From: a virus
Lineage: Duplodnaviria > Heunggongvirae > Uroviricota > Caudoviricetes
Strand: one strand, 5' to 3'
Virus record (IMG/VR): IMGVR_UViG_2675903368_000004
DNA: 12,577 nt
Position numbers and translations under genes: made by a program. Positions 6,861 to 6,882 of the stretch are shown here, piece after piece; the stretch's first letter is position 1, and each line of letters begins with the position of its first letter. Below the pieces are notes generated by a model that searched no databases, was not told where the DNA came from, and was given only the letters and a program-made list of their open reading frames with translations.

Positions 6861-6882
6861 AAAAAAAACCGCCGAAGCGGTT
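6861..6882 (-). terminator. Intrinsic-terminator-like hairpin between the GT stop and the tape measure start
   Basis: Minus-strand RNA AACCGC-UUCG-GCGGUU followed by six further U (UUCG tetraloop, U8 run in total); plus strand shows aaaaaaaaccgccgaagcggtt. Confidence 0.55.

Follow-up and report, generated by a model that had tools for sequence, protein, structure and literature searches.

A terminator-type hairpin upstream of an HK97-type tape measure gene and its link to a moron slot

The 12,577-nucleotide stretch of viral DNA analysed here (the window) carries, between the end of the tail chaperone fusion GT and the start of the tape measure protein gene (TMP), a non-random hairpin of terminator-type anatomy on the coding strand (6882-6867, minus). 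Hairpins at this position are kept among relatives while their stems change, they mark the edge of a slot that is occupied by morons in relatives, and close relatives encode the antiterminator Q followed by a tR'-like terminator. We put at roughly 0.5 the probability that the hairpin terminates RNA polymerase not modified by Q at the edge of this slot, the moron itself being absent from the window, and that it is bypassed in Q-driven late transcription. Actual termination at hairpin 6882-6867, its efficiency and read-through by Q-loaded polymerase are what we infer from these features; a literature search retrieved no transcript-end data on such hairpins.

In the mechanism that we propose, hairpin 6882-6867 would be a Rho-independent terminator within a late operon that is antiterminated by Q, in a lambdoid prophage of the HK97 type, and its position would correspond to the 3' edge of the T/TMP insertion slot, where relatives hold promoter-ORF-terminator moron cassettes. 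Polymerase without Q, coming from a moron promoter where one is present or from spurious or read-through starts in the lysogen, would pause on the U8 run, the C(UUCG)G-capped stem would form in the RNA exit channel and the transcript would be released. Such termination would keep TMP and the distal tail genes silent in the lysogen. During lytic growth Q-loaded polymerase would read through, and the effect on the ratio of G and GT to TMP would be small at most.

The hairpin and the genes around it

The minus strand carries all genes of the window. Gene G, for the tail assembly chaperone (7579-7193; PF06222, E = 2.7e-58) ends in GTT AAA AAA AAG TAG, within which the slippery heptamer A_AAA_AAG (7202-7196) was read directly from the sequence, and the T frame (7199-6891; PF06223), which encodes the C-terminal part of GT, is in -1 relative to G. 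The HK97 counterpart, gp13/14, is annotated with a -1 frameshift. These features bear out the identification of G and GT made in the initial annotation, whose coordinates, hairpin sequence and 40-nt gap between the GT stop and the ATG also proved exact on direct reading. The TGA stop codon of the T frame (6893-6891), where GT ends, lies 8 nt upstream of the hairpin base, from which it is separated by the spacer GUCAACAU.

The stem-loop AACCGC-UUCG-GCGGUU, read directly and also picked up by a terminator scan of the window, pairs A6882-C6877 with G6872-T6867 (6 bp, four of them G-C) and is closed by a C(UUCG)G tetraloop, with the UUCG loop at 6876-6873. A run of eight U (6868-6861, minus strand) follows, the first two being the last bases of the stem; among close relatives the run comprises U7, U8 or U9. 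Folded alone, the hairpin has a free energy of -8.1 to -8.5 kcal/mol, with z = -3.4 to -3.7 relative to dinucleotide shuffles. Intrinsic terminators are expected to have a G+C-rich stem of about 5-14 bp with a short loop, a range in which hairpin 6882-6867 falls at the weak end, together with an unbroken U-tract right 3' of the stem, which here is U8 (6868-6861), and a sense orientation outside coding sequence, as given by its location in the T-TMP gap. Read in antisense, the hairpin is followed merely by TTATGTTG. Given its short and weak stem, it may be a poor terminator. A search of the whole window against Rfam at the gathering threshold gave no family match.

Downstream of the U8 run the minus strand reads, in order, CGUCC, GGAG, A, ATG at 6850, AGU and GTG at 6844, so that the gap following T measures 40 nt to the ATG and about 46 nt to the GTG. 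The HK97-type TMP gene (6850-3618, minus) corresponds to an intact homologue of 1075 aa with PF06120, PF20155 and PF09718. Its Shine-Dalgarno sequence (SD) GGAG (6855-6852) is kept in relatives as GGAG or GGGTGA. The ATG (6850-6848) is in frame with TMP and just 1 nt from GGAG. The TMP proteins of relatives all start MATLRELIIKISANS, and in the MATLRELI alignment the homologous codon of the window is the GTG at 6844-6842, which is also favored by the annotation of ON470612 and is probably the true start. It lies 7 nt from GGAG, a normal SD spacing. The argument that the TMP SD, placed 2 nt from the ATG, is poorly spaced therefore fails, because it was built on ATG 6850 rather than on the homologous start. 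A GTG start may by itself lower translation of TMP.

In the window one nucleotide is missing between 6655 and 6654, which breaks the TMP reading frame into segments of 70 aa and 1005 aa. The missing base is the C of ACAG-C-TAAA, present in the aligned relative ON470612, and among the matches listed the phages and most E. coli sequences, 99.9% matches included, span 802 nt where the query has 801 nt. The deletion is either a disabling frameshift, as in a defective prophage, or a sequencing error.

Hairpins of the same design in the window and in relatives

Under a strict scan requiring at least six pairs, at least four G-C pairs and at least five T in the 8 nt following the G-C core, the window contains eight sites in sense and one in antisense, the latter being hairpin 6882-6867 read in reverse. 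Shuffled versions of the window gave 0.9 ± 0.85 sites per strand (maximum 3), with an antisense expectation of 1.0. Four sites are strong, with a near-perfect U-run (9852-9833, 8323-8307, 6882-6867 and 1276-1251), and they fill exactly the four intergenic gaps of at least 40 nt; elsewhere in the window genes abut or overlap. In this order, the first follows the capsid gene and the other three precede the major tail gene, TMP and J.

Just after the major capsid gene, the first of them (9852-9833, minus; -11.2 kcal/mol) reads AGACCGCG-CCGA-CGCGGUUU plus a U-run, and its HK97 counterpart lies at 5192-5213. The second, ACCCGCC-GCU-GGCGGGU plus U7 (8323-8307, minus; -12.6 kcal/mol), is located just upstream of the major tail gene and corresponds to an annotated putative terminator of HK97. 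The hairpin of the I-to-J gap (1276-1251, minus) reads AAACCGCC-UCCG-GGCGGUUU plus a U-rich tail, with its HK97 counterpart at 15107-15129. Of the four, hairpin 6882-6867 has the weakest stem, with 6 bp and about -8 kcal/mol. The notion of four hairpins of one design, all in the sense of the genes, thus held for these four sites, every one of them in a gap, and the same-sense bias held in a count of both strands (eight sites versus one, with 0.9 per strand in shuffles). Equal frequencies in antisense or within genes, which would speak against such a bias, were not found in the window, where the strong sites are all intergenic. This pattern of hairpins extends through the whole late operon of Evi, a complete relative.

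The arrangement of hairpin, U-run and GGAG upstream of the major tail gene is conserved more widely than the hairpin on the TMP side. It was visible, by eye and unscored, in nearly all of 71 distinct relatives, with many different stems, and was seen (again by eye) down to 38% protein identity, Burkholderia included. No moron was seen at this position in any of the 71.

The region of hairpin 6882-6867 is shared, at 97% identity or more, by 11 deposited phages, and the prophage family was found in 902 of 5426 complete E. coli genomes. To survey more distant relatives we retrieved 124 loci, in genomes and in viral contigs, by means of an alignment of T proteins. We mapped where T stops and where TMP starts in each of them, and the conservation count covers 61 distinct sequences upstream of TMP. 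Of these 61 sequences, 50 have a terminator-like hairpin in the 70 nt preceding the TMP start, with 24 distinct stems, and wherever it was present the distance from the end of the G-C core to the TMP start codon was 17-27 nt. The same sequences, when shuffled, gave 0.45/61, and random sense-strand windows from the same loci gave 1.5%, so the hairpin is not a product of chance. Examples of the stems are GCCCGC-GGCU-GCGGGC, ACCCGC-UUCG-GCGGGU, ACCGCC-UUCC-GGCGGU, ACCCACC-UCAAU-GGUGGGU and CCCCGC-GCAU-GCGGGG. Non-Watson-Crick pairs within the stems of relatives include nine G.U/U.G and one C.A, and U.U and C.U mismatches occur at the A/U-rich bases of the stems; these pair types fit an RNA structure formed on the sense strand. 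Alignment of the 24 distinct hairpins with MAFFT and RNAalifold gave a covariation term of -0.05, stem and loop lengths being variable, and it is because stem lengths vary that the covariation in the alignment is weak. The conservation evidence thus consists of a fixed position combined with turnover of the stem, and not of classical covariation.

Relatives from Pantoea, Erwinia and Burkholderia with T-TMP gaps of 9-22 nt have no hairpin between T and TMP, and none was found in the 19-nt gap before TMP in HK022. The TMP of HK022 is unrelated, and we rejected this phage as a moron-less comparator since it has no bearing on the persistence of the hairpin without a moron. Within the clade of the window the stem is invariant over about 50 loci, of low divergence, in which the flanking spacer and the length of the U-run vary. 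Several moron-less lineages have well-formed hairpins with different stems, positioned 0-4 nt after the T stop and with no moron remnant, and these intact hairpins suggest a function independent of morons.

The T/TMP junction as a moron slot

Extra genes, on inserts of 277-1688 nt, come between T and TMP in 36 of the 61 distinct junctions, and 33 of these 36 inserts end in a hairpin and U-run right before the TMP SD. The cargo includes HK97 gp15/YebO-like proteins (PF13974), a zinc-ribbon membrane protein (PF13248), multi-gene inserts and at least four unrelated lipoproteins, several of them with no Pfam match, and every cargo type found in the slot has a hairpin after it. The T/TMP junction of HK97-type tail modules is a hot spot for cargo of at least eight unrelated types (for example at L096, L115, L114, L104, L020, L006 and L035, among loci L003-L126). 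Moron-bearing loci with different cargo (for example L005, L007, L012, L020 and L036) have in common a motif, T(A/T)TAGGAT(T), at about 20-25 nt downstream of the T stop, which may be a candidate -10 element of the moron promoter. The Tai defence paper, also considered, was of no relevance to the T/TMP slot.

The type of hairpin tracks the cargo: on reading the sequences, zinc-ribbon cargo was accompanied by AACCGC-YYCG-GCGGUU in 15 of 16 distinct loci. At locus L096, whose TMP is 98% identical to that of the window, the T stop is followed by a zinc-ribbon moron and then by AAAAACCGCUUCGGCGGUUUUUUUUCGUCCGGAGAAUGAGUGUGGCG, and from the hairpin onward the hairpin, leader and TMP start are identical to those of the window. 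The same identity of hairpin and leader downstream of the zinc-ribbon moron holds for L106. Morons are recognized by an extra ORF between T and TMP, by a promoter of their own and by a factor-independent terminator downstream. In the window the hairpin lies just 8 nt beyond the T stop and there is no extra ORF; a promoter scan of the T-TMP gap gave no site, nor is there room for one; and the downstream terminator is present, identical to the end of the zinc-ribbon moron in L096/L106. Because of this identity, the window represents an empty T/TMP moron slot with its terminator in place, whether orphaned or resident.

The last 12 or so codons of T differ between the window and L096, and because of this difference the history of the slot must have involved recombination rather than a clean deletion. 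The divergent T C-termini agree with a break observed in two E. coli matches (H50 and H51), in which G and most of T are about 89% identical to the window and similarity ends about 70 nt before the T stop, at query position 338; this break places a boundary of mosaic recombination within the 3' end of T. The slot of the window may have lost its ORF, or an ORF may elsewhere have been captured upstream of a resident terminator; the sequences are compatible with either.

Hairpins were more frequent in moron-bearing junctions (33/36) than in moron-less ones (17/25; Fisher p = 0.04, uncorrected for phylogeny), and their median energy was -12.6 kcal/mol in the former versus -8.7 kcal/mol in the latter, for which shorter segments were folded. 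Since moron-bearing junctions have the stronger and more frequent hairpins, the stopping of moron transcripts is suggested as the main selective pressure on the hairpin. Moron termination cannot, nevertheless, be the whole story for this class of hairpins, because the one on the major tail side is near-universal with no moron there.

Q antitermination, rival explanations and known systems

The 12.6-kb window stops short of the region in which Q would be expected, and the Q and tR' context of the late operon was seen in phage Evi, which is 98% identical to the window over the hairpin region. Evi encodes a Q antiterminator (PF03589) followed by a promoter-like region and by a tR'-like hairpin, AACCCGCCCCCGUGCGGGUU-U7, downstream of which are tRNA genes and a second terminator, the two tR'-like hairpins being located at 16975 and 16573. 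Its region 16556-17056 (locus L002, minus) comprises the tR'-like terminator, three clustered tRNA-like sequences, the second terminator and a run of 11 G, a layout that we take to resemble the late regions of Stx phages. Because close relatives encode the Q antiterminator and tR'-like terminators, Q-driven late transcription should by analogy largely ignore the 6-bp hairpin 6882-6867. Two bioRxiv reports (10.1101/651190 and 10.1101/2022.03.25.485794) describe Q-loaded polymerase as deficient in both pausing and termination.

The initial annotation had proposed that the hairpin attenuates transcription and so sets the ratio of G to TMP. Its terminator-like character is upheld by anatomy, by the sense bias and by retention in relatives; the attenuation part is not supported in view of the presence of Q in close relatives, of the hairpin before the major tail gene and of the moron slot, and special dosage control is probably not what the hairpin provides. 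As a leaky attenuator it would stop some polymerases even with Q present, leaving fewer transcripts over TMP and the distal tail genes than over major tail, G and GT, a possibility that we regard as unlikely though worth keeping in view. The anatomy is that of a terminator, and the hairpin is fittingly placed downstream of genes whose products are required in bulk and upstream of those whose products are required in few copies, as is the hairpin after the major capsid gene (9852-9833); partial termination is one of two roles listed for intra-operon terminators (PMC8022706), moron-less relatives keep the hairpin, and a GTG start would likewise cut TMP output. Against this stand the Q antitermination of close relatives and the same design placed, in nearly all relatives, directly upstream of the gene for the major tail protein, with another before J. 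Siphophage tails contain the major tail protein in larger amounts than any other protein, and because the design precedes both its gene and J, the hairpins as a set are not arranged according to protein stoichiometry. The hairpin is moreover absent from the relatives with gaps of 9-22 nt and from HK022, it marks the 3' edge of the moron slot and is identical to the moron terminator of a close relative, and the supporting argument of poor SD spacing used the wrong start codon. In lambda, T and H presumably overlap, which also counts against attenuation. A more elaborate version, in which a ribosome-gated terminator would tie TMP expression to the rare G-to-GT frameshift, we find highly improbable. 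A frameshifted ribosome ending at the T stop would cover the 5' arm and block the hairpin, the T stop being 8 nt from the stem in the window and 0-4 nt from it, or overlapping it, in other moron-less relatives; if this were true, transcripts or re-initiation would reach TMP mainly during GT synthesis, matching TMP to GT.

That the hairpin is a neutral relic, the functionless leftover of a lost moron or of a recombination import, ignored by Q-loaded polymerase, is rather improbable in our judgement. The identity of hairpin and leader to those after the zinc-ribbon moron in L096/L106 is what such a relic would show, and where the junction has no moron the hairpins are weaker, in some cases degenerate (L041, L044, L045) and in others missing. 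The stem is, however, invariant in the roughly 50 loci of the window's own clade while spacer and U-run vary, although divergence there is too low to decide, and other moron-less clades hold intact hairpins with different stems. Stem-loops at 3' ends protect RNA, and the strong hairpins do bracket the capsid gene and the segment from major tail to G and GT; the hairpin might thus cap the 3' end of that segment against 3' exonucleases, following endonucleolytic cleavage or occasional termination, and raise its level. Such a role in stability or processing is quite doubtful, given that hairpins 8323-8307 and 1276-1251 would shield segments needed at low level only and that a perfect U-run is specific to termination and unneeded for protection. 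Hardly credible to us is a translational role, in which the U-rich tract would serve as a ribosome (S1) standby or enhancer site, or CUUCGG would pair with CCGGAG and mask the SD. The minimum free energy structure of contexts of 51-76 nt does pair CUUCGGCGG with the SD region, at -14.7 kcal/mol versus -8.5 kcal/mol for the hairpin alone, with the loop and 3' arm CUUCGGCGG pairing to CCG-UCCGGAG (positions 6840-6890, minus), and the distance from hairpin to start is a constant 17-27 nt. This fold, however, is no better than that of shuffled sequences (z = -0.6 to -1.3), is predicted only in the clade of the window and in L111, and is not predicted in relatives having the same hairpin with a longer A/U extension or in those with other loops. 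We therefore rejected SD masking as a general mechanism, the fold being clade-specific and not significant against shuffles, and treated it as incidental. Termination of polymerase lacking Q at the edge of the moron slot remains the reading that we prefer.

Among known systems, attenuators of the trp/pyrBI type resemble the hairpin of the window in having a terminator hairpin upstream of a gene and near an upstream stop codon, but they differ in that the window has no conserved antiterminator structure, leader peptide logic or element for binding a ligand or protein. Regulated attenuators are defined by a mutually exclusive structure or a sensing element, and in the window we found only the alternative fold confined to one clade, and no Rfam match.

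The closest parallel is HK97 (NC_002167), in which a 'putative terminator' is annotated at 8398-8422, after moron gene 15 and directly upstream of TMP gene 16, with the sequence ACCCGCU-AUCA-AGCGGGU-U8-AUGGGUGAAAAUAUG. HK97 and the window share homologous G, T and TMP, the TMP proteins starting MATLRELI and VATLRELI, as well as the order of hairpin, U8, SD and start on the same strand and in the same design, and the HK97 record places putative terminators at the equivalents of all four strong hairpins of the window. The two differ in stem and loop sequences and in that the HK97 hairpin follows a promoter and the gp15 ORF, whereas that of the window comes directly after the T stop, where there is no ORF and too little space for a promoter. 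According to a review (PMC3594210), morons have a promoter and a terminator of their own, and gene 15 of HK97, the first moron, is situated between the genes for the tail assembly chaperone and TMP. Measured against moron cassettes as defined by Juhala and Hendrix, the hairpin of the window is identical to the terminator half of the zinc-ribbon cassette of L096/L106 in the same T/TMP slot; lacking an extra ORF and a promoter, the window itself holds no moron.

Phages of the L/P22 group have sense-strand Rho-independent motifs in a few gaps of their single-promoter, Q-dependent late operon, for which partial termination or the stopping of non-antiterminated transcription have been put forward as candidate roles (PMC8022706). 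From the terminators of these lambdoid late operons (phage L/P22 group and HK97), located for example after the capsid module, the hairpin of the window differs in no kind, and hairpin 6882-6867 is an already recognized kind of feature, annotated in HK97 and in lambdoid late operons. Taken alone, it matters little, being one more putative terminator inside such operons. The T/TMP junction, on the other hand, is a busy moron slot. It is nearly always closed at its 3' edge by a terminator, 17-27 nt ahead of the TMP start, which can persist when the slot is empty, and the comparative set gathered here provides test cases for what intra-operon terminators do in Q-dependent operons.
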